A stretch of DNA of 20,000 nt from an uncultured virus (IMG/VR IMGVR_UViG_3300010885_030646) (Duplodnaviria > Heunggongvirae > Uroviricota > Caudoviricetes). Location of the stretch: positions 55,287 to 75,286 of the IMG/VR virus record IMGVR_UViG_3300010885_030646. The stretch is one strand, 5' to 3'. Numbering within the stretch: position 1 is the stretch's first letter; every line of letters begins with the position of its first letter. The notes under the pieces were generated by a model. That model saw nothing but the letters and a program-made list of their open reading frames with translations, ran no database searches and was not told where the DNA came from. The translations under genes and the position numbers were made by a program. Below, piece by piece: positions 5,362-13,231 of this stretch.

Positions 5362-6371
5362 ATCTATTTAAAAAAGCTGCGGTCTTTACTGATATCCATT
5401 TTGGCCTTAAGTCAAACAGTGTGTTACACAATGAAGACTGCTTGAACTTTGTGAAATGGGCCACTGCCAAAGCCAAAAGTGAAGGTTGTGAAACCTGTTT
5501 GTTCCTAGGCGACTGGCACAACAATCGATCAAGTCTAAACATTGTCACACTAAACTACAGCCTGCGGGCACTGGAGCACATGAATGCTAATTTCGACCGT
5601 GTGTATTTTATCCCTGGTAATCACGACCTTTATTATCGTGACAAGCGCGATATACAGTCAGTTGAGTGGGCACGACACCTCCCTAATATTGAGATATGCA
5701 ATGATTGGGTTTCTAGTGGCGACGTTGTTATCGCCCCTTGGTTGTGCGGAGATGATTATAAACGGATTCCTAAACTAAAAGGCAAATATATGTTTGGGCA
5801 CTTTGAGTTGCCCGGCTACCTGATGAATGCCATGGTAGAAATGCCAGATCATGGTGAAGTACGTAGAGAAGACTTTGTAAACTTTGAGCATGTGTTTACC
5901 GGACACTTTCACAAACGACAGACCAAAAAGAATATTACCTACATCGGCAACTGTTTCCCGCATAACTACGCTGATGCCAGCGATGATGAACGCGGCATGA
6001 TGATTCTAGAGTGGGGACAGGAGCCAGAGTTTCATGCCTGGCCTGCGCAGCCAAGATATCGTGTGTTAGGACTCAGCAATGTGATTGACAATGCTGCCAC
6101 TGTGCTAGCAAAAGACATGCATGTTCGTGTACAATTAGACATTGAGATCTCATACGAAGAAGCTAACTTTATCAAAGAAACTTATATTAAAGACTACGGG
6201 CTAAGAGAAATGGCTCTTATTCCAAACAAGGCAGCCGGAGTCGACACAGACATGGCGCCAGGCGAAATAAAGTTTGAATCAGTTGATCAAATTGTAACAG
6301 ATCAACTCACTAACATTGAATCTGAATTCTACGATCCAAAACTGTTGTTAAAAATATATCAAAACTTATGA
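5358..6371 (+). CDS. gp47: Recombination nuclease subunit, T4 gp47 / SbcD / Mre11-like metallophosphoesterase
   Basis: FTDIHFG, LGDWHN, GNHD, GHFE and GHFH metallophosphoesterase motifs; paired with the gp46 ATPase. Confidence 0.95.
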   Translation: MNLFKKAAVFTDIHFGLKSNSVLHNEDCLNFVKWATAKAKSEGCETCLFLGDWHNNRSSLNIVTLNYSLRALEHMNANFDRVYFIPGNHDLYYRDKRDIQSVEWARHLPNIEICNDWVSSGDVVIAPWLCGDDYKRIPKLKGKYMFGHFELPGYLMNAMVEMPDHGEVRREDFVNFEHVFTGHFHKRQTKKNITYIGNCFPHNYADASDDERGMMILEWGQEPEFHAWPAQPRYRVLGLSNVIDNAATVLAKDMHVRVQLDIEISYEEANFIKETYIKDYGLREMALIPNKAAGVDTDMAPGEIKFESVDQIVTDQLTNIESEFYDPKLLLKIYQNL

Positions 6372-7945
6372 ATCAGTTTGACAAATCTATAGATCGTTTG
6401 CAAAAACTTTACGATACTGCGGGACCGTTTTATCTGTCAGAGTTTTATCAGGCCGACGGAGACAAAAAATTATATAATTTTCTAACTTCTGTTTATCAGA
6501 TCGAATACACCACTAATTTTCGAATTCTAATAGTCCAAGACTGCATAGATGTGTACGATTATGAAGACTTGCCAGGAAAAGCCATATGTACGTTACAACA
6601 ATACGTTAGTCAGATAGATATTAGCAATTTTTTTGTTGTAGTTGTAACTGGCAATAAAAACATAGACACCGAACTAGCGCAAGTACAAAAGTTGTATTCT
6701 ACCGATGATTGTAAAATGCAAAGTCATATTGTCAACAATGTCAAATACACTGCAACTCATCAACAACAAGACACATTTTGTGTATTGCCATGGGTGCATT
6801 TATACGTTGGTCCCGACGGAAATGTGTTACCATGTTGTGTTGCTGATCAAAAATTTCCAATGGGTAATATCAATGATGCTTCGGTAGATGACATTTCAAA
6901 ATCGTCTGTATTTAATCTTCTACGAACAAACATGTTGACTGGCAAACGTAGTAAGGAATGCAACCGATGTTATATCCAAGAGGATGCTGGATTGATGAGT
7001 GCAAGACGATCTCACAACGCTCAATGGTCTCAAAAAAAATTAAATATCGAATCTAGTGGAGTACTTAAAACGTTTGAGCCGGTTTATCTTGATATAAGAT
7101 TGAACAATATCTGCAATCTCAAATGCAGAATGTGCAATGGCTATTTTAGCAGTGCTATTGCACAAGAAGAATCGAAGCTTTTTGGTAATCAACAATCATT
7201 AGATGCAAGCATGCAATCTGCACAAAAAGCACTAGCACTTGAAGAGATTATTAAATATTTGCCACAAGCAGAAAAAATATATTTTGCAGGTGGAGAACCA
7301 TTGCTTGCTCTAGAACATTACAAAATATTAGATGCATTAATTGAATGTGGCAATACTGACCTAGAAGTAACTTACAACACCAACTTTACTTCACTTGCAT
7401 ACAAAGATATTTCTGTCTTGGACTTATGGAAAAAATTCAGTCAAGTAAAAGTTGGAGCAAGTCTCGATGCAATAGGACGTGTAGCCGAATATGTCAGGCA
7501 CGGAACCAAGTGGCCTACTATTGAATCTAACTTAGCATCTCTCAAACTACAGTGTCCTCATGTGAATTTTACCGTGACTTCAACTGTGGGATTTTTAAAT
7601 ATTTCCAGTTTAATTGAGTTGCAAACAACATGGCATGAAAACAAAATTTTAGATATTTCAAAATTCTCAATACAAGCTATGATAGGACCAGATCACTTGA
7701 CGCTAACAGTATTGCCAACCGAGCACAAAGACCGACTTGATTATAAAATAAAAAATCATATCAACTGGTGTTACCAAAATCAAGCAACTACTCTTGCGGC
7801 ACAGTGGAAAAATGTGTTACAATACATGTGGAGTAAGGACTCTTCGCAGTTTCTATCTGAATTTAAAAGATTAACTAGATTAATGGATCAATTTAGAAAC
7901 GAATCATTAAGTGTAGTATTACCAGAGTTTTCTAGTTTTATATGA
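6368..7945 (+). CDS. Radical SAM protein with a SPASM/twitch-like Fe-S domain preceding the SAM domain and an extra ~130-aa N-terminal region
   Basis: CVLPWVHLYVGPDGNVLPCC...CNRC (SPASM/twitch-like); CNLKCRMC (CxxxCxxC); FAGGEP; YNTN; SLDAIG...EYVRHG. Confidence 0.9.
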   Translation: MNQFDKSIDRLQKLYDTAGPFYLSEFYQADGDKKLYNFLTSVYQIEYTTNFRILIVQDCIDVYDYEDLPGKAICTLQQYVSQIDISNFFVVVVTGNKNIDTELAQVQKLYSTDDCKMQSHIVNNVKYTATHQQQDTFCVLPWVHLYVGPDGNVLPCCVADQKFPMGNINDASVDDISKSSVFNLLRTNMLTGKRSKECNRCYIQEDAGLMSARRSHNAQWSQKKLNIESSGVLKTFEPVYLDIRLNNICNLKCRMCNGYFSSAIAQEESKLFGNQQSLDASMQSAQKALALEEIIKYLPQAEKIYFAGGEPLLALEHYKILDALIECGNTDLEVTYNTNFTSLAYKDISVLDLWKKFSQVKVGASLDAIGRVAEYVRHGTKWPTIESNLASLKLQCPHVNFTVTSTVGFLNISSLIELQTTWHENKILDISKFSIQAMIGPDHLTLTVLPTEHKDRLDYKIKNHINWCYQNQATTLAAQWKNVLQYMWSKDSSQFLSEFKRLTRLMDQFRNESLSVVLPEFSSFI

Positions 7946-10023
7946 TCCATATTAAAAATTTAACTGTTAAGAACTTTATGAGTGTGGGCAATGCCACACA
8001 GGGTATTGACTTTGACCGTAACGACCTTACATTGGTATTAGGCGAAAACTTAGACTTAGGTGGAGATGGATCACGCAACGGAACTGGCAAGACCACAATC
8101 ATCAATGCCCTAAGTTATGCCTTGTATGGCCAAGCACTTTCAAACATCCGCAAAGACAATCTAGTAAACAAAACCAACGGCAAGAACATGCTTGTGAGTT
8201 TGGACTTTGTTGTAAATGGTCAAGAGTACAAGATCGAACGTGGTCGTAAACCAAATGTGCTACGATTTTATGTCAACAACGAAGCTCAAGCTGTCACAGA
8301 TGAAGCACAAGGCGACAGTCGTGAAACACAAGATGCTATCGAACGTGTGATGAATATGAGTCATGACATGTTCAAACATGTGTTGGCCTTGAACACCTAC
8401 ACTGAACCGTTCCTGAGTTTAAAAGCCAACGACCAACGCAACATCATTGAGCAGTTGTTGGGTATTACCCTACTAAGTGAACGTGCTGATGCCATCAAGG
8501 AACTCAATCGGCAGACCAAAGACAGTATCTCGCAAGAAGAATTCCGTATACGGGCAGAACAAGAAGCCAACAAACGCATTGAAGAACAGATTGAAAGTTT
8601 GAAACGCAGGCAAGTGCTCTGGCAGAAGAAGTACGACAGTGATGTAGCGTACCTTGTGGCACAATATGATGATCTAGCCAAGATCAACATCGATGTTGAA
8701 TTGCTAGCTCACAAAGATCTAGCTGTATGGACCACACGTAAACAACAACAGGATGCGTATACTGCACTGGTTGGTCGCCAAACTGCTTGGCAACAAAAAC
8801 AACACCGAGACATTGGCGAGCTGGAACTAACTCTTAACACGCTCAGTCATATTGATATTCAAGCAGAACTACAAGCACATGCGGACTTGGCTGCTTACAC
8901 ACAAAAAGCCAAAGACATTGCCGATCTTGAAAAACTGATTGCTAGGTGCGTTACAGACGAGGCAAAAGAACAAAAAGTTATTGATAAACTCCGAATCGAA
9001 ATTGCGGAATTAAAAAATCACAAGTGTTATGCATGTGGACAAGACTTCCACGATGCCAATCATGAAACAGTATTGGGCACAAAAGAGAAGGCATTGCAAG
9101 AAGCCTCTCTGCAAGCATTGAGTACTAATGGTCAGTGGATGGAAAATACAGATGCATTACAAGCATTGGGTGCGCTGGGCACAAAACACACCACACACTA
9201 CGATACAGAAACACAAGCCATTCGTCATTCAAGCGAACTAGAAAACATTCAGCACAAGATTGATGCCAAACGTGCGGAAACAGATCCTTACGCTGAACAA
9301 CTGGCAGAGCATACACTGGTAGAGGTTGGTACACACCCTGTTACGCATTATGATACAGAAGCACAAGCTGTTGAGCATCGCAGTCGTATGAATACATTAC
9401 TGACTCAGATTGCTACCAAAGGAGAAGAGAAGGATCCGTACACTGAACAGATTGTTGAAATGCAACAACAGGCATTGCAGACTGTGAGTTACGATGCACT
9501 CAATGATCTCACAAGATTACAAGAACACCAAGACTTCTTGCTCAAACTGTTGACATCCAAAGATAGTTTTGTACGTAAAAAGATTATTGATCAGAATTTG
9601 AGTTATCTAAACGCACGACTGACGCACTACTTGGATCGTATTGGCTTGCCACACACTGTGAAATTCCAAAACGACTTGAGTGTGATGATTGAAGAACTGG
9701 GTCGTGAACTAGACTTTGATAACTTGAGTCGTGGCGAACGCAATCGTTTGATCTTATCAATGTCATGGGCATTCCGTGATGTATGGGAGAGTCTGTACAG
9801 CCCAATTAACTTGTTGTTCATTGATGAACTCATCGACAATGGTTTAGATACTCAGGGTGTAGAGAACGCACTAGCACTGCTGAAGAAGATGAGCCGAGAG
9901 CGCCACAAGTCAATCTGGCTTGTGAGCCACAGAGATGAACTAGCCGGACGTGTGGAGAACATTCTCAAAGTGATAAAAGAGAATGGTTTTACCAGTTACA
10001 ATACCGACGTAGAACTTGCATAA
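7942..10023 (+). CDS. gp46: Recombination ATPase subunit, T4 gp46 / SbcC / Rad50-like
   Basis: KNFMSVG, Walker A NGTGKTT, central CYAC zinc hook, signature LSRGE, Walker B LFIDE, H-loop VSH. Confidence 0.95.
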   Translation: MIHIKNLTVKNFMSVGNATQGIDFDRNDLTLVLGENLDLGGDGSRNGTGKTTIINALSYALYGQALSNIRKDNLVNKTNGKNMLVSLDFVVNGQEYKIERGRKPNVLRFYVNNEAQAVTDEAQGDSRETQDAIERVMNMSHDMFKHVLALNTYTEPFLSLKANDQRNIIEQLLGITLLSERADAIKELNRQTKDSISQEEFRIRAEQEANKRIEEQIESLKRRQVLWQKKYDSDVAYLVAQYDDLAKINIDVELLAHKDLAVWTTRKQQQDAYTALVGRQTAWQQKQHRDIGELELTLNTLSHIDIQAELQAHADLAAYTQKAKDIADLEKLIARCVTDEAKEQKVIDKLRIEIAELKNHKCYACGQDFHDANHETVLGTKEKALQEASLQALSTNGQWMENTDALQALGALGTKHTTHYDTETQAIRHSSELENIQHKIDAKRAETDPYAEQLAEHTLVEVGTHPVTHYDTEAQAVEHRSRMNTLLTQIATKGEEKDPYTEQIVEMQQQALQTVSYDALNDLTRLQEHQDFLLKLLTSKDSFVRKKIIDQNLSYLNARLTHYLDRIGLPHTVKFQNDLSVMIEELGRELDFDNLSRGERNRLILSMSWAFRDVWESLYSPINLLFIDELIDNGLDTQGVENALALLKKMSRERHKSIWLVSHRDELAGRVENILKVIKENGFTSYNTDVELA

Positions 10024-10101
10024 TTTAGCATTGTAGGCATATTTTTTAACCAATCAACTTTAAGGCATAACTATAACGCAAGGATAAATCGCACACAACA
10101 C

Positions 10102-10530
10102 ATGACATGGCTATATCAAGATACCCCAATTGAGACATTGCCCGAAGAGTGTGTTGGATTTGTTTACTTGATCACAAATAATCTTTCTGGACGCAAGTAC
10201 ATAGGCAAAAAATTAGCAAAATTTAGTAAAACAACTTACAAAACTGTAACACAAAAGAACGGCACAAAGAAGAAGAAAAAGATACGCTCAAAGATCGACA
10301 GCGATTGGCGAGAGTACTATGGGTCAAGCCCAGAATTGACTTTAGACATCGAAAAACTAGGCACCAAAAACTTCACCAGAGAAATACTTTATTACTGCGG
10401 ATCAAAATCTGAATGTAGTTATGTCGAAGCAAGAGAACAATTTGCAAGACAAGTATTAGAGTCACAAGATTATTACAACGGCCATATTCAAGTTCGTGTG
10501 CATGGCTCACACATCATAAACAAAATTTAA
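10102..10530 (+). CDS. Small standalone GIY-YIG family nuclease
   Basis: GFVYLITNNLSGRKYIGKK (GIY-YIG motif), YYGSS, F.REIL, E...Q, YYNG; 142 aa with no C-terminal DNA-binding repeats visible. Confidence 0.85.
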   Translation: MTWLYQDTPIETLPEECVGFVYLITNNLSGRKYIGKKLAKFSKTTYKTVTQKNGTKKKKKIRSKIDSDWREYYGSSPELTLDIEKLGTKNFTREILYYCGSKSECSYVEAREQFARQVLESQDYYNGHIQVRVHGSHIINKI

Positions 10531-10544
10531 CAGGCAACAATTAC

Positions 10545-10925
10545 GACTCTGTGTTGAGTGTTTGACTCAACCCCATTGAAGAACGGTGAGATACCCGGGC
10601 TGGACTTGGGCGTCAAAGGCAATTGCTAACTTAAGGCAACAAATGGTCGGGGCTATGTGAAAAAGATACAACCCCAGCTCGTAGGACTTGGATCTATATC
10701 GGGTCACTAGGGTTCCGTTGATATGTGAAGCTTGAGTAGGGGGTACCGGTCAACCGCCTCCGCGTTGGAAACAACAATCTCATTATGATAGATGACTGCT
10801 ATACTCAGATAATGGCGTTTTTTGTTCACCGTGCATACGGTGAACTATGACCACGTAATCTAGATAATAGCTAAGAAGAAAAATGTGATTGAGCTCAAGC
10901 GAAATCACAGATTAGCGTAGCTAAT
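10545..10925 (+). ncRNA. Candidate large structured non-coding RNA of unassigned class
   Basis: ORF-free gap with many stems read by eye: GTTGAGT/ACTCAAC (10553-10571), CCCGGG/CTTGGG (10594-10610), GACTTGGAT/ATCGGGTC (10685-10705), GTTG-GAAA-CAAC (10764-10775), GTTCACCGT-GCAT-ACGGTGAAC (10824-10845), plus long-range TGAGTA/TACTCA. The G-U pairs and the GAAA tetraloop favour the plus strand. Confidence 0.6.
10884..10925. terminator. Two hairpins at the convergence point of the two operons (possible terminator or 3' end structure)
   Basis: TGTGATT/AATCACA (10884-10909), followed on the minus strand by a T-rich tract (plus-strand AAGAAGAAAAA, 10873-10883); ATTAGC-GTA-GCTAAT (10911-10925) overlapping the stop codon of the convergent gene. 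Confidence 0.45.
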
Positions 10926-11970
10926 CTTTCTTAATCAACTGATGTATGTTGGGTTCTAACAACTTGTGTAGGTCTTGTGTATTGGTAGGAAATTTTTCCA
11001 ATTGCCAATTTTTTAAATTAAGATTATGTCTATAAAGCAATGCATTTTGTATGATTACTTCTTTGTAGAAATCTAAATTAAATCTTTCAAGACTCAGATA
11101 TTCGTTATGCACAATAGCATTGATAATGCGATCAAAGTGTCTTGAAAAGTATTGATCATGTTTTAATCTCCAAACGTTATATATCAACTGCCATTGGCTA
11201 ATCTGTGTTGAACTAATTGAAATATCAATAAAATGTAATATTTCAGTTGCTACAGAAAATAGATCATTCCATACATCATCTGTGGTGTACAATAAATGTG
11301 GTAATTTTTTATTGATGGCAGAATTGTACAACAGTTGGTTGTGTGGAGTGTAGTCGTAGAACATCAGTGCTAATTTTTCTCTGTTGTCCCATATGGTATC
11401 ATTGAATTTATCATCCATGCCTGTAAAAAATGTTTCTTTGTATGTTTCCCATGAGGCATCAATGCTGTCAACACCAACACCATTGCAATTCATTGGATAT
11501 CGGTCGTTGTAGATAGCATTTAATTGATCCGTTGACTGATACTCAAATTGAACCAATGGTAGATCATGTTGTTGAATCCAATCTACTAGCTTTTTTCTAT
11601 CTTCAAAAATATAATCTATGGCAAGTTGTTGTTGGGCAACAGTTGCCTCTGCTATTGTTATTGCAAACAGTTCTTGTAATGCCTGAGTTGTTGACATGCT
11701 ATTAACATAAAAACACACAACTGGTAATTCACTGTTAAAATTCACTGCCTTGCTGTATTTTTGTTTGGTCTCTTCAAACCCCCAGGACAGTAAAATTTTT
11801 TGTTGATGAAAATTTTTAGCAGTAGTGTCTGGATTAACTACACAATCAATTAACTGATTATCATCAATTAGGTACTGTGTTTGTCCAGATAAAAAATACA
11901 AACTCCAGATAACAAAATGTCCACCGGTGTTGTGAGGAAAAAATAAAAAAACAAATTTAGTTGAATTCAT
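10921..11970 (-). CDS. Hypothetical protein, paralog of 4474..5361 (possibly sulfotransferase-like)
   Basis: Likely start MNSTKF at 11970 (short overlap with the upstream gene) rather than 12015; NTGGHFVIWSL, IWDNREKL and C-terminal LEKFPTNTQDLHKLL parallel the other ORF; visibly AT-rich. Confidence 0.55.
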   Translation of the reverse strand: MNSTKFVFLFFPHNTGGHFVIWSLYFLSGQTQYLIDDNQLIDCVVNPDTTAKNFHQQKILLSWGFEETKQKYSKAVNFNSELPVVCFYVNSMSTTQALQELFAITIAEATVAQQQLAIDYIFEDRKKLVDWIQQHDLPLVQFEYQSTDQLNAIYNDRYPMNCNGVGVDSIDASWETYKETFFTGMDDKFNDTIWDNREKLALMFYDYTPHNQLLYNSAINKKLPHLLYTTDDVWNDLFSVATEILHFIDISISSTQISQWQLIYNVWRLKHDQYFSRHFDRIINAIVHNEYLSLERFNLDFYKEVIIQNALLYRHNLNLKNWQLEKFPTNTQDLHKLLEPNIHQLIKKD

Positions 11971-12295
11971 CTGGCCAATCACGGAACAGTGCATGTTGTA
12001 TCGTGCCGGAAACAAACTGATTGAAACTTCGATGTTTGGTTTCTAGTTCACCTTCAAGCGGAGCAACACGTCGAAATGCTGAATCCATTTGAGCCATGTC
12101 CTTGAACTCCATCAGTATCATCCATTCGGGCATGTCTGCAATACTTCTGAATCCCATCTTACATCTAGTAATGCGATAGTCTTGCATCTTGCCTTCTGAT
12201 TTCAAATGATCAAAGAAACTCTTCATGCCGTTGACCCAGTCTAAGTCTGAGATGTCGCCTTCTTTGTCTGCCCAAATTGTGTAAATGTCTGCCAT
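11957..12295 (-). CDS. DUF6614-like small protein (probable dimeric alpha/beta barrel)
   Basis: HL...G....YRITR.K.G......EW.I.MEF..MAQMD.AF..V.......E..H pattern recalls DUF6614; recognised from memory only. Confidence 0.5.
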   Translation of the reverse strand: MADIYTIWADKEGDISDLDWVNGMKSFFDHLKSEGKMQDYRITRCKMGFRSIADMPEWMILMEFKDMAQMDSAFRRVAPLEGELETKHRSFNQFVSGTIQHALFRDWPDEFN

Positions 12296-12296
12296 G

Positions 12297-12728
12297 TTAT
12301 AGTGGTCCTAAAATTTCAAAACCTTCAAGGTCTTGTTTGTACAGATGTGCCTGATCCAAGTACAAGTACTCAAATCCACGGTCTCTGTAGATTGCACACT
12401 CTGTTTGTAAACTTGAGATACCCAGACGTAGTCGAGGTGTACGGTAGTTCCAAGCAAACTGTGCGGCTAATAAATTTCGATCATCGTAGCGTTTCATCAT
12501 GGAAAACGCCACCAGTTCACCCGCATCCCTGTAGCCAATAAGATCCATGCCGGGCTCTGTAAACTGGCTATCAAACAGTGGCATTACACTGCCAAAGTGT
12601 TTGTAGATACAATAGGTTCTGTAGATGTCTTGCAGTTCAGCAATGTCGGGGTCGGTGATGTAGTACCAGTCCACTCTAGGCTGGTATGTTGTTTTTTTCA
12701 AGTTGATTCTAGCAAACTGATAAGTCAT
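12297..12728 (-). CDS. GNAT-fold protein resembling the C-terminal domain of aminoacyl-tRNA-protein transferases (ATE/Bpt)
   Basis: YRDAGELVAFS...QFAWNY..P.LRLGISSLQTE...RDRGFEYLYL parallels the ATE_C pattern y..dgkLvAv...ytfyDp.....sLG.ysil.ei..a...gl.y.YLG. Confidence 0.55.
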   Translation of the reverse strand: MTYQFARINLKKTTYQPRVDWYYITDPDIAELQDIYRTYCIYKHFGSVMPLFDSQFTEPGMDLIGYRDAGELVAFSMMKRYDDRNLLAAQFAWNYRTPRLRLGISSLQTECAIYRDRGFEYLYLDQAHLYKQDLEGFEILGPL

Positions 12729-13231
12729 AGTCTAGGATCTTTCCTATGTTGGAACAGTGCTGTGAGATAATGGTTGGGCCATGAGTCATAAAATCCTTTT
12801 GCAGCCATTTGTGTTGCTTTGGTGTTGAGATCACTTAGGCTTTGTACCAGGGCCAGTGCGTATGTACCTTGATTCATGCAGATACCATTGACCATTTCTA
12901 CATCAGCCGGATGATCTTCTAGCACCAATATATCTGCATCTAATAGAAATTCTTGATTGGCCTGGTCTAAACTAGAAGCAAACAGCTCGTGTGGCCATTC
13001 TGTAGGATCGTACGCATAGATAATCACTTCTCGATTGCCCATGCCGTACCTGGCTCTGTTCTTGAGATCAAAGTATGGGTCTGATCCAACGAACACTTCA
13101 TAACTGCGTTTCAAACGTGCTGATCGTGCATAAGGACAGGGCGGAAATCCGCCCAACGCAGGATGCGGAACTTCTACAAAGTTCTGAATCCACTGTTCGA
13201 TATCGTGTTTGACTTGATCTATGTTCAGCAT
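12725..13231 (-). CDS. DUF1415-like protein
   Basis: WIQNFVE.P...LGG.PPCPYA and later LEDHP...LVQ..S.L resemble the CPFA and FHP motifs of DUF1415-type proteins. Confidence 0.45.
   Translation of the reverse strand: MLNIDQVKHDIEQWIQNFVEVPHPALGGFPPCPYARSARLKRSYEVFVGSDPYFDLKNRARYGMGNREVIIYAYDPTEWPHELFASSLDQANQEFLLDADILVLEDHPADVEMVNGICMNQGTYALALVQSLSDLNTKATQMAAKGFYDSWPNHYLTALFQHRKDPRL

Follow-up and report, generated by a model that had tools for sequence, protein, structure and literature searches.

A pseudoknotted ~390-nt RNA of T4-like freshwater phages shares its 3′ half with RNAs that carry the Polynucleobacter-1 motif

RNAs that combine large size, an intricate fold and an invariant core are seldom met; in the past, such RNAs have proved to be ribozymes or central machines. 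Two phage-associated representatives of ornate RNAs are GOLLD and ROOL, which are large, often occur in phages or prophages and are described as self-assembling multimers (bioRxiv 10.1101/2024.12.08.627333). The closest described relative of the RNA presented here is the Polynucleobacter-1 motif (Rfam RF01718), which was listed as a probable RNA, possibly cis-regulatory, of Burkholderiales and of fresh or estuarine water (Weinberg et al. 2010, PMC2864571). In most of its rows, the supplementary alignment of that study extends through a hairpin that takes part in a pseudoknot and through a GGUACCGG...CCGCCUC hairpin, and not into the repeat module described below; it also cites a copy in a Polynucleobacter chromosome (PMC2864571). 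A full-text literature search returned no further paper that names the motif.

We analysed a stretch of 20,000 nucleotides (the window) of a 75-kb IMG/VR record from an uncultured virus; the same sequence occurs, without a difference, in a complete phage genome of 346,856 bp that has terminal repeats. An initial annotation, made by inspection of the letters, had proposed a non-coding RNA at positions 10545-10870. Our data indicate that the locus encodes a real, elaborately folded RNA of ~390 nt at 10544..10935 on the plus strand, the form that we call type A; profile searches with nhmmer, structure statistics and the occurrence of G-U but not A-C pairs all identify it. The RNA lies in the 390-nt gap between a gene for a GIY-YIG protein of 142 aa (10102-10530, plus strand; Pfam SegE_GIY-YIG, E 9.5e-33; phrog_447) and a convergent gene (10921-12015, minus strand). 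Its first bases are located just 3′ of the GIY-YIG stop codon, its conservation sets in at ACGACTCTGTG, whatever the upstream context, and its 3′ end is the U-tract behind a terminator (~10935). The hairpin at 10885-10908 and the terminator at 10909-27 belong to the RNA, so that it reaches ~65 nt further than the 10870 initially assumed. The neighbouring genes are T4-like and code for a gp47-like phosphoesterase, a radical-SAM/SPASM protein, gp46/SbcC, a T4 baseplate protein and a T4 portal protein.

To compare the RNA with known families, we searched the window against Rfam. No match was obtained with Rfam 15 at the gathering cut-offs, nor with any of 4227 families at E values up to 10 over positions 10400-11000; RNase P RNA, GOLLD, ROOL, T-box and the other Rfam families thus gave no covariance-model match at this threshold. 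Neither a tRNA nor a tmRNA was found in the window by ARAGORN or Rfam. These results agree with the initial annotation, which had found no match of the candidate to tRNA, tmRNA, RNase P or group I/II intron cores. A group I intron was also rejected on its context and topology: the upstream gene has its own stop codon, a terminator follows, and the helix order does not fit, the pseudoknot being formed by a hairpin loop and a strand that lies 5′ of the last hairpin. Like GOLLD and ROOL as they have been described, the RNA is large, elaborately folded, non-coding, phage-associated and found by comparative genomics, but it is smaller and shares no sequence or covariance-model similarity with them.

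RF01718 (gathering cut-off 37 bits) matched neither the window nor the type-A relatives L005, L048 and L062. A relationship became visible among the weaker nhmmer matches, which contained a second form of the RNA, type B, that occupies the same locus as type A and shares only its 3′ half. The type-A profile matches type-B loci over profile positions ~207-420 with E values of 1e-25 to 1e-14, and the 5′ half of type B was recognized as RF01718 in all 11 loci scanned, with scores of 77-122 bits. A third 5′ domain characterizes type C, for which Rfam gave no match in seven loci (three searched at E up to 1, four at gathering). Types A, B and C all have two TGAC-repeat modules (TGAC-R1 and TGAC-R2) on either side of a hairpin, then an A-rich linker, a hairpin in which G-A mismatches stand in tandem, and the terminator. 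Since sister phages carry at the same locus an RNA that combines this 3′ half with an RF01718 5′ half, the RNA of the window is a variant of a known orphan RNA. The novelty that the initial annotation had made dependent on Rfam therefore holds for the window, which is without a match, and does not hold in full, because the sister RNAs carry RF01718 as their 5′ domain.

The likeness to the Polynucleobacter-1 motif includes the locus in sister phages, the orientation behind a GIY-YIG gene and before convergent baseplate-side genes, the freshwater habitat and the homologous 3′ half, with its pseudoknot-loop hairpin, CCGTTG joining strand and helix around a GGTACCGG...CCGCCTC hairpin. An equivalent pseudoknot is marked in the 2010 alignment of the type-B RNA (PMC2864571). 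The 5′ architecture of RF01718, on the other hand, consists of three hairpins followed by a closing helix with two more, and is not present in the window: the 141-nt Rfam model describes only the type-B 5′ domain, whereas the 5′ domain of the window (10545-10614, ~70 nt) is different and shorter, with one closing helix around a hairpin and a further helix that carries a hairpin of its own. The 2010 alignment ends before the repeat module, the tandem G-A hairpin and the terminator. Additionally, unlike the motif as listed, the RNA of the window belongs to a phage and forms the 3′ end of its transcription unit. That a stop codon precedes it, that it has a terminator of its own and that the genes beyond converge on it all speak against a 5′ leader. 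The known motif is thus one of three exchangeable 5′ domains on a conserved ~390-nt phage RNA; an orphan motif catalogued in 2010 becomes tied to a much larger RNA, and what was taken for a leader at the 5′ end of bacterial transcripts is placed at the 3′ end of a transcription unit in phages.

The folding energy alone provided weak and unremarkable support for a structured RNA. The comparison with shuffled controls on both strands, which the initial annotation had named as a check, showed a single sequence that folds only weakly better than its shuffles, with -114.7 kcal/mol and a z-score of -2.01 for the plus strand (2 of 100 shuffles as good) and a z-score of -1.71 for the minus strand. For comparative analysis, 77 related loci were gathered via the gp46 protein. 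The gap sequence was detected by BLAST in ~30 of them at 75-93% identity, even where gp46 was only ~60% identical; this high identity could partly stem from endonuclease-driven gene conversion and not from RNA function. A 22-nt core pattern matched at least 120 IMG/VR viral contigs, and the nhmmer profile found 163 places among 198 loci, which yielded 101 distinct full-length sequences. Two alignments were used, one of 24 sequences (A1) and the nhmmer alignment of 101 sequences, which served for pairwise covariation.

From the 24 sequences, RNAalifold predicted 96 pairs, 40 of them with compensating changes. The final structure is this model revised by the pairwise covariation in the 101 sequences and then tested against shuffles. 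Two RNAalifold elements were discarded in the revision: the helix GTCA 10612-15/TGAC 10794-97, which clashes with covarying pairs, and a hairpin over 10706-37, which shows no covariation and clashes with the covarying helix 10733/10782. The revised structure comprises 88 pairs in 18 helices. Within the 24 sequences, 95.1% of the cells were paired compared to 87.1% in shuffles, changes on both sides occurred in 43 pairs compared to 20.1, and the covariation score was 0.287 compared to 0.130. None of 500 shuffles reached the observed paired share, both-side-change count or covariation score. When the 3′ partners were slid by 1-3 columns, pairing fell to 32-46%. G-U pairs are frequent and A-C pairs rare in the plus-strand reading, which identifies the plus strand as the RNA strand. 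The candidate RNA of the initial annotation is therefore real, as judged by covariation that no shuffle of its 24 relatives equals.

Protein coding was excluded for this region. Each reading frame is interrupted by 6-12 stop codons, always of two or more kinds; reassigning one kind of stop would open none of the frames, and 242 of the 284 gap runs in the alignment are not multiples of three. The stretch 10544-10935 is not coding.

The RNA begins with the 5′ domain (10545..10614; helices 1-4 of the tested structure) that is replaced by other sequence in types B and C. Its outer helix, GAC 10545-47 with GTC 10612-14 (pair 10545-10614: GC 87 and CG 12 of 101 sequences), holds the hairpin 10554-70 and the helix CCCA 10572-75/TGGG 10607-10 (pair 10573-10609: CG 87, GT 9, GC 5 of 101), which in turn holds the hairpin 10580-10601 (pair 10584-10597: CG 77, TA 12, AT 11 of 101). 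The first of these hairpins had been seen initially as 10553-10571, and its stem 10554-59/10565-70 shows both-side changes at all six pairs. A helix AACGG 10582-86/CCGTT 10715-19, proposed to close a large domain, gives way to local pairing of CGG 10584-86 with CCG 10595-97; the bases of a hairpin proposed at 10590-10614 sit in three other helices. The 5′ domain is followed by the hairpin TTGCT/GGCAA with a 7-nt loop (10623..10639; helix 5, both-side changes in 2 of 5 pairs) and by a long hairpin with a GGGG/CCCC stem and an internal loop (10643..10682), in which covariation among the 101 sequences is seen at the pairs 10649-10675 (TA 51, GC 38, CG 7) and 10656-10670 (TA 84, CG 17). The next hairpin (10685..10705; pair 10687-10703: CG 90, TA 11 of 101) carries the 5′ strand of the pseudoknot, ATCTAT 10692-97, in its loop (helices 8 and 9). 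The 3′ strand of the pseudoknot is ATAGAT at 10788..10793; helix 9 has both-side changes in 3 of its 6 pairs, and the pair 10694-10791 is CG in 44 and TA in 43 of the 101 sequences. All three of these hairpins had been anticipated (the long one as 10649-10675), and the alignments bear them out. A GGACTTGG repeat pointed out at 10602 and 10684 is present, but its two copies vary independently in A1.

The centre of the RNA is its most conserved part, with 44 of the 58 columns of the core 10706-10763 invariant among the 101 sequences. It starts with a near-invariant joining strand of 27 nt, ACTAGGGTTCCGTTGATATGTGAAGCT (10706..10732), without supported pairing, in which 26 consecutive columns (10706-10731) are at least 97% conserved in that alignment. 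A three-way junction (10733..10782) follows, where TGAG 10733-36 pairs with CTCA 10779-82 (pair 10733-10782: TA 58, AT 41 of 101) around a bulged hairpin, 10739-61, and a GNRA hairpin, 10764-75. The TGAGTA 10733-38/TACTCA 10802-07 helix of the initial annotation is displaced by this pairing. Both inner hairpins had been recognized correctly: the GGGGG/CCTCC stem around CGG-TCAA-CCG is nearly invariant (pair 10739-10761: GC 75, AT 26 of 101), and the hairpin GTTG-GAAA-CAAC, in which the pair 10766-10773 occurs as four pair types, keeps a GNRA loop above a stem of 3 bp or more in 99 of 114 distinct sequences.

The 3′ part contains two modules of similar build. Module 1 (10793..10814) consists of TGAC, 6-7 variable bases and the repeat R1 (10803-14, ACTCAGATAATG); module 2 (10848..10869) consists of TGAC, 6 variable bases and the repeat R2 (10858-69, ATCTAGATAATA). 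Between R1 and R2 lies a 9-bp hairpin (10824..10845; helix 15, both-side changes in 3 of 9 pairs), already noted initially and confirmed by the alignments, whose stem sequences differ in types B and C. An A-rich linker of varying length (10870..10884), which has TCGCTTCGCTC here in many relatives, leads to a hairpin with a 6-bp stem, tandem G-A/A-G mismatches, two G-C pairs and a tetraloop (10885..10908) that also occurs in types B and C. Its covarying pairs include 10885-10908 (AT 57, GC 33 of 101), 10888-10905 (GC 56, TA 22, AT 8 of 101) and 10893-10900 (GC 85, AT 14 of 101). The RNA ends with an intrinsic terminator (10909..10933), a stem-loop at 10909-27 followed by TTTCTT. It was found in a terminator scan, has the features of an intrinsic (Rho-independent) terminator at the end of the conserved unit, and its stem covaries (pair 10912-10924: TA 51, CG 33, AT 13 of 101; pair 10913-10923: TA 51, CG 41 of 101). 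Covariation, G-U pairs on the plus strand only, the GNRA loop, the pseudoknot and the invariant core bear out a multi-domain, tertiary-folded RNA as initially suggested, while its division into two closed domains does not stand. The helices 10545-47/10612-14 and 10572-75/10607-10, the pseudoknot, the hairpin 10885-10908 and the terminator were absent from the initial annotation.

The RNA is carried by a clade of T4-like freshwater phages with genomes of 332-347 kb. By BLAST, one copy was present in each of two complete type-A genomes; with the type-A query, the type-B and type-C forms in two other near-complete genomes went undetected. A GIY-YIG gene lies upstream on the same strand in 80 of 80 type-A loci with at least 1600 nt of upstream sequence, directly adjacent to the RNA in 63 and separated from it by a gene of ~1 kb in 17. 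Because it is fixed and not sporadic, this gene looks like a core gene and not like a roaming homing endonuclease. Of 57 loci with sufficient downstream sequence, 56 have their first recognized downstream gene on the opposite strand (none was recognized in the remaining one); these 56 genes code for DUF6614 (32), a baseplate protein (16) or a relative of the 10921-12015 product (8). Conservation is higher in the GIY-YIG gene, the RNA and DUF6614 than in gp46. The RNA starts ~10-25 nt behind the preceding stop codon, whichever gene precedes it, and no shared upstream promoter motif was seen by eye in 16 loci. Among these giant lake phages, a widespread group, the RNA is a gene with one copy and a fixed place.

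To assess expression, contigs from RNA libraries were examined. Contigs from relatives (four runs of four studies, at least 85% likeness) cover 10085-10882, and three of them span the 3′ end of the GIY-YIG gene and the 5′ domain of the RNA. This is a weak hint that gene and RNA are co-transcribed; such contigs show neither strand nor ends, and DNA carry-over may occur. Apart from one run, no contig lies before 9914 or after 10940, and, the flanks being less conserved, the missing cover there is uninformative on transcript ends. A joined form that skips the segment between the repeats was not present among the contigs, in which rare forms are dropped.

The direct repeats R1 and R2, 55 nt apart, show an unusual pattern of variation. 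They differ from each other by a fixed CTC against TCT and by the last base, whereas the two copies agree in all seven bases behind CTC/TCT in 106 of 108 distinct sequences. The AGATAAT repeat of the initial annotation (10807 and 10862) falls here; it is present and highly non-random. Where the repeats vary, the bases are identical, and not complementary, between the copies. Each of the four possible A/G combinations at the two main variable sites is common, and the rarer C, AC and GAG states also match between the copies. The mutual information is 0.97 for 10807/10862 and 1.07 for 10811/10866, in both cases the full column entropy, while other columns reach at most 0.37 with the variable repeat sites. 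Although just 4 nt separate the two variable sites, they vary almost independently. Because the repeat columns match fully and are yet nearly independent of everything else, the pattern is not accounted for by linkage, phylogeny or ordinary gene conversion, and the variation among the sequences indicates that the likeness of R1 and R2 is maintained by selection. Repeats that are identical to each other while drifting freely offer a sharp handle for testing.

We know of no simple base-pairing model that would explain repeats of this kind. A complement of R1/R2 was not found inside the RNA, where the best complementary stretches were inconsistent among 11 loci, and no position was enriched for one within 2.5-4 kb flanks of 129 loci. 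Strict 11-nt complements in three complete genomes were limited to the repeats themselves and 1, 3 and 1 unrelated sites, two of which, once translated, fall in open reading frames. The residues of the GIY-YIG protein do not track the repeat state; the top mutual information was 0.24 for the first variable site and 0.64, at a hypervariable column, for the other. In the single-sequence fold, R1 pairs with R2; under that model, sequences with A at 10807 and G at 10862 should be favoured, and none has this combination. Template switching by a reverse transcriptase between the repeats was dismissed, with no RVT_1 match in four near-complete genomes. A promoter reading of TGAC...GATAAT was likewise rejected: the spacing is ~10 nt and the module occurs only at these two places, with one loose match elsewhere in the 75-kb record.

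A further parallel is the translational bypass of T4 gene 60, which uses matching take-off and landing sites and involves a homing-endonuclease cassette. As there, two short sequences match across a distance of ~50 nt and enclose a hairpin, the phage is T4-like and an endonuclease gene is the neighbour; matching take-off and landing sites would likewise give identity covariation. In contrast to gene 60, no open reading frame enters R1 or R2; stops lie upstream in every frame, single-base length changes before R1 break any frame, and bypass or a mini-ORF via the repeats was rejected. Recognition of R1 and R2 by each other or by a shared partner, in a way undescribed for natural RNAs and with the exchangeable 5′ domains as adaptor modules of one conserved machine, is a long shot. 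It might take the form of an intramolecular, parallel-stranded like-with-like pairing of R1 and R2, or of a two-armed guide in which the same changeable sequence is read twice, for example on the two arms of an inverted DNA or RNA target.

Since the RNA has no room for a promoter upstream and has a terminator of its own, we infer that transcription of the upstream operon continues into it and that it forms the 3′ end of the operon transcript. This transcript would probably be trimmed to a stable RNA that acts in trans. Its tightly folded core could hold R1 and R2 as identical single-stranded elements on both sides of a hairpin, where they may engage two copies of one partner, or one partner twice, with the exchangeable 5′ domain as an accessory. 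Our best guess is a processed 3′-end RNA that acts as a putative folded scaffold. We are highly confident of a pseudoknotted, multi-helix RNA of ~390 nt, single-copy and fixed in position, that is type A of a larger RNA. The mechanism taken as one is tentative and may well be wrong in some step, and for the explanation as a whole, including both parts, we consider the chances about even. 3′-UTR-derived sRNAs also end in an intrinsic terminator, and like them the RNA lies directly behind a stop codon and has an A-rich single-stranded stretch, terminal hairpins and a U-tail; the examples known to us are all far smaller and less structured. The location at the 3′ end of a plus-strand unit, always facing minus-strand genes, the terminator, the lack of promoter space and the RNA-library contigs that bridge gene and RNA would also suit a cis-acting 3′ UTR that shields the upstream message from 3′ exonucleases and insulates the convergent units, without a role in trans. 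We regard this as unlikely, as the invariant core, the pseudoknot, the GNRA loop and the identical repeats exceed the needs of a stabilizer or insulator, and in 17 of 80 loci a different upstream gene precedes an unchanged RNA.

Size, pseudoknot, multi-helix junctions, GNRA loop and near-invariant joining strands are typical of catalytic RNAs, and two sites of the same sequence flank a 43-nt hairpin segment. It seems nevertheless quite unlikely that the pseudoknotted core is a ribozyme that catalyses, for instance, its own excision or cutting and joining at the repeats: no Rfam ribozyme or intron matches at E up to 10, exons are lacking, the helix order is unlike that of the group I core, and a repeat-joined form is missing from the RNA-library contigs, although these drop rare forms. 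The strong conservation of the GIY-YIG gene, the RNA and DUF6614 compared to gp46 could also reflect an element that acts as DNA, either a homing site or co-conversion tract of the GIY-YIG protein or repeats and a palindrome with a function in DNA. Variants would be slipped-strand pairing or invasion of the downstream DNA copy by the upstream RNA copy, similar to a plasmid primer RNA; the identity of direct repeats is what pairing of one copy with the complementary DNA strand of the other requires. However, the 43 compensating pairs, the G-U pairs on one strand and the covarying pseudoknot reveal selection on RNA, the GIY-YIG gene is fixed in 80 of 80 loci, whereas a selfish gene would be sporadic, and the state of the repeats is not mirrored in its residues. 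Converging genes are unlike a replication origin, and the three fixed differences between R1 and R2 (CTC against TCT) would weaken such a hybrid, so that an element of this type is very improbable. The modest z-scores of -2.0 and -1.7 on the two strands and the missing Rfam match are what functionless chance hairpins in a decayed gene or in spacer DNA would give as well; this reading is refuted by the nhmmer spread over more than 100 distinct conserved sequences, the covariation and the shuffle test, and by the homology to an Rfam-linked RNA, and its probability is negligible. The preferred reading remains the processed 3′-end RNA with a putative scaffold function.

Outside the IMG/VR contigs, matches were few. 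Phage records in GenBank gave no DNA match to the RNA, and only a 340-nt segment of gp46 matched Pseudomonas PA5oct-like jumbo phages, at ~69%. Among bacterial genomes, 3 of 79 pattern matches were real, all of them in contigs of metagenome bins: two in contigs of 148 kb and 183 kb of one Haliscomenobacter-labelled bin and the third in a Flavobacteriales bin, on a contig of 1.7 kb. The probable explanation is that contigs of phages ended up in bacterial bins. The DNA runs that contain the stretch are lake and freshwater metagenomes.

In addition to type A, the form of the structured RNA that the window carries, a third form of about 450 nt, type C, was found at the same locus. Type C RNAs lie at L013:3541-4100, L070:4455-4960 and L071:8073-8560, and additional examples were found at the related loci L015, L023, L040 and L043. 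The type C repeats read CTCACATGAAG and TCTACATGAAT, and comparison of the 5′ and middle parts with Rfam families gave no match. The A-rich linker that leads from the second direct repeat, R2, to the tandem G-A hairpin is otherwise variable, but a short motif, TCGCTTCGCTC, recurs in it and is represented in types A, B and C. This motif was observed in many relatives (for example at L005:8490-8510 and in L075 and L069), and it is absent from the linker of the window.

Within the 5′ domain of type A, position 10560 in the loop of the first hairpin co-varies as a Watson-Crick pair with position 10611, the single unpaired nucleotide that separates two helices. The combination is GC in 60, AT in 25 and GT in 7 of the 101 distinct aligned sequences, a pattern which suggests that the two bases may form a lone tertiary pair.

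Convergent to the RNA lies a three-gene cassette (11957-13231, − strand) encoding a DUF6614 protein (E = 2.4e-22), an ATE_C-like protein with a weak match (E = 0.00098) that does not reach the Pfam cut-off, and a protein of 168 aa. Among the 57 RNA-keeping loci with enough downstream DNA, at least 16 lack this cassette, and thus the RNA and the cassette are not obligately linked. A 364-aa ORF (10921-12015, − strand) matched no Pfam or PHROG family. As listed, it shares its first 59 nt with the end of the DUF6614 ORF, so its true start may be located further inside. Relatives of this ORF are 28-32% identical and occupy one of two placements, either on the − strand, 3′ of the RNA, or on the + strand, where they separate the GIY-YIG gene from the RNA (examples are L087, L098, L107 and L133). 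The ORF looks like a movable insert.

Upstream, a radical-SAM/SPASM gene (6368-7945, + strand) separates the two recombination nuclease genes, gp47-like and gp46-like. Among relatives, the radical-SAM/SPASM gene is missing, placed elsewhere or only 22-30% identical. The gp46/SbcC gene (7942-10023, 693 aa) occurs in two lengths among relatives, with matches of 2079 nt versus about 1760 nt, and the form in the window therefore has about 106 extra residues.

Two large contigs of 148 and 183 kb (L229 and L243), each of which carries the phage RNA, were assigned to one metagenome bin of 6.9 Mb that bears the label Haliscomenobacter. Both contigs probably belong to jumbo phages and were placed in a bin with a bacterium, and they are at best a faint hint of the host.
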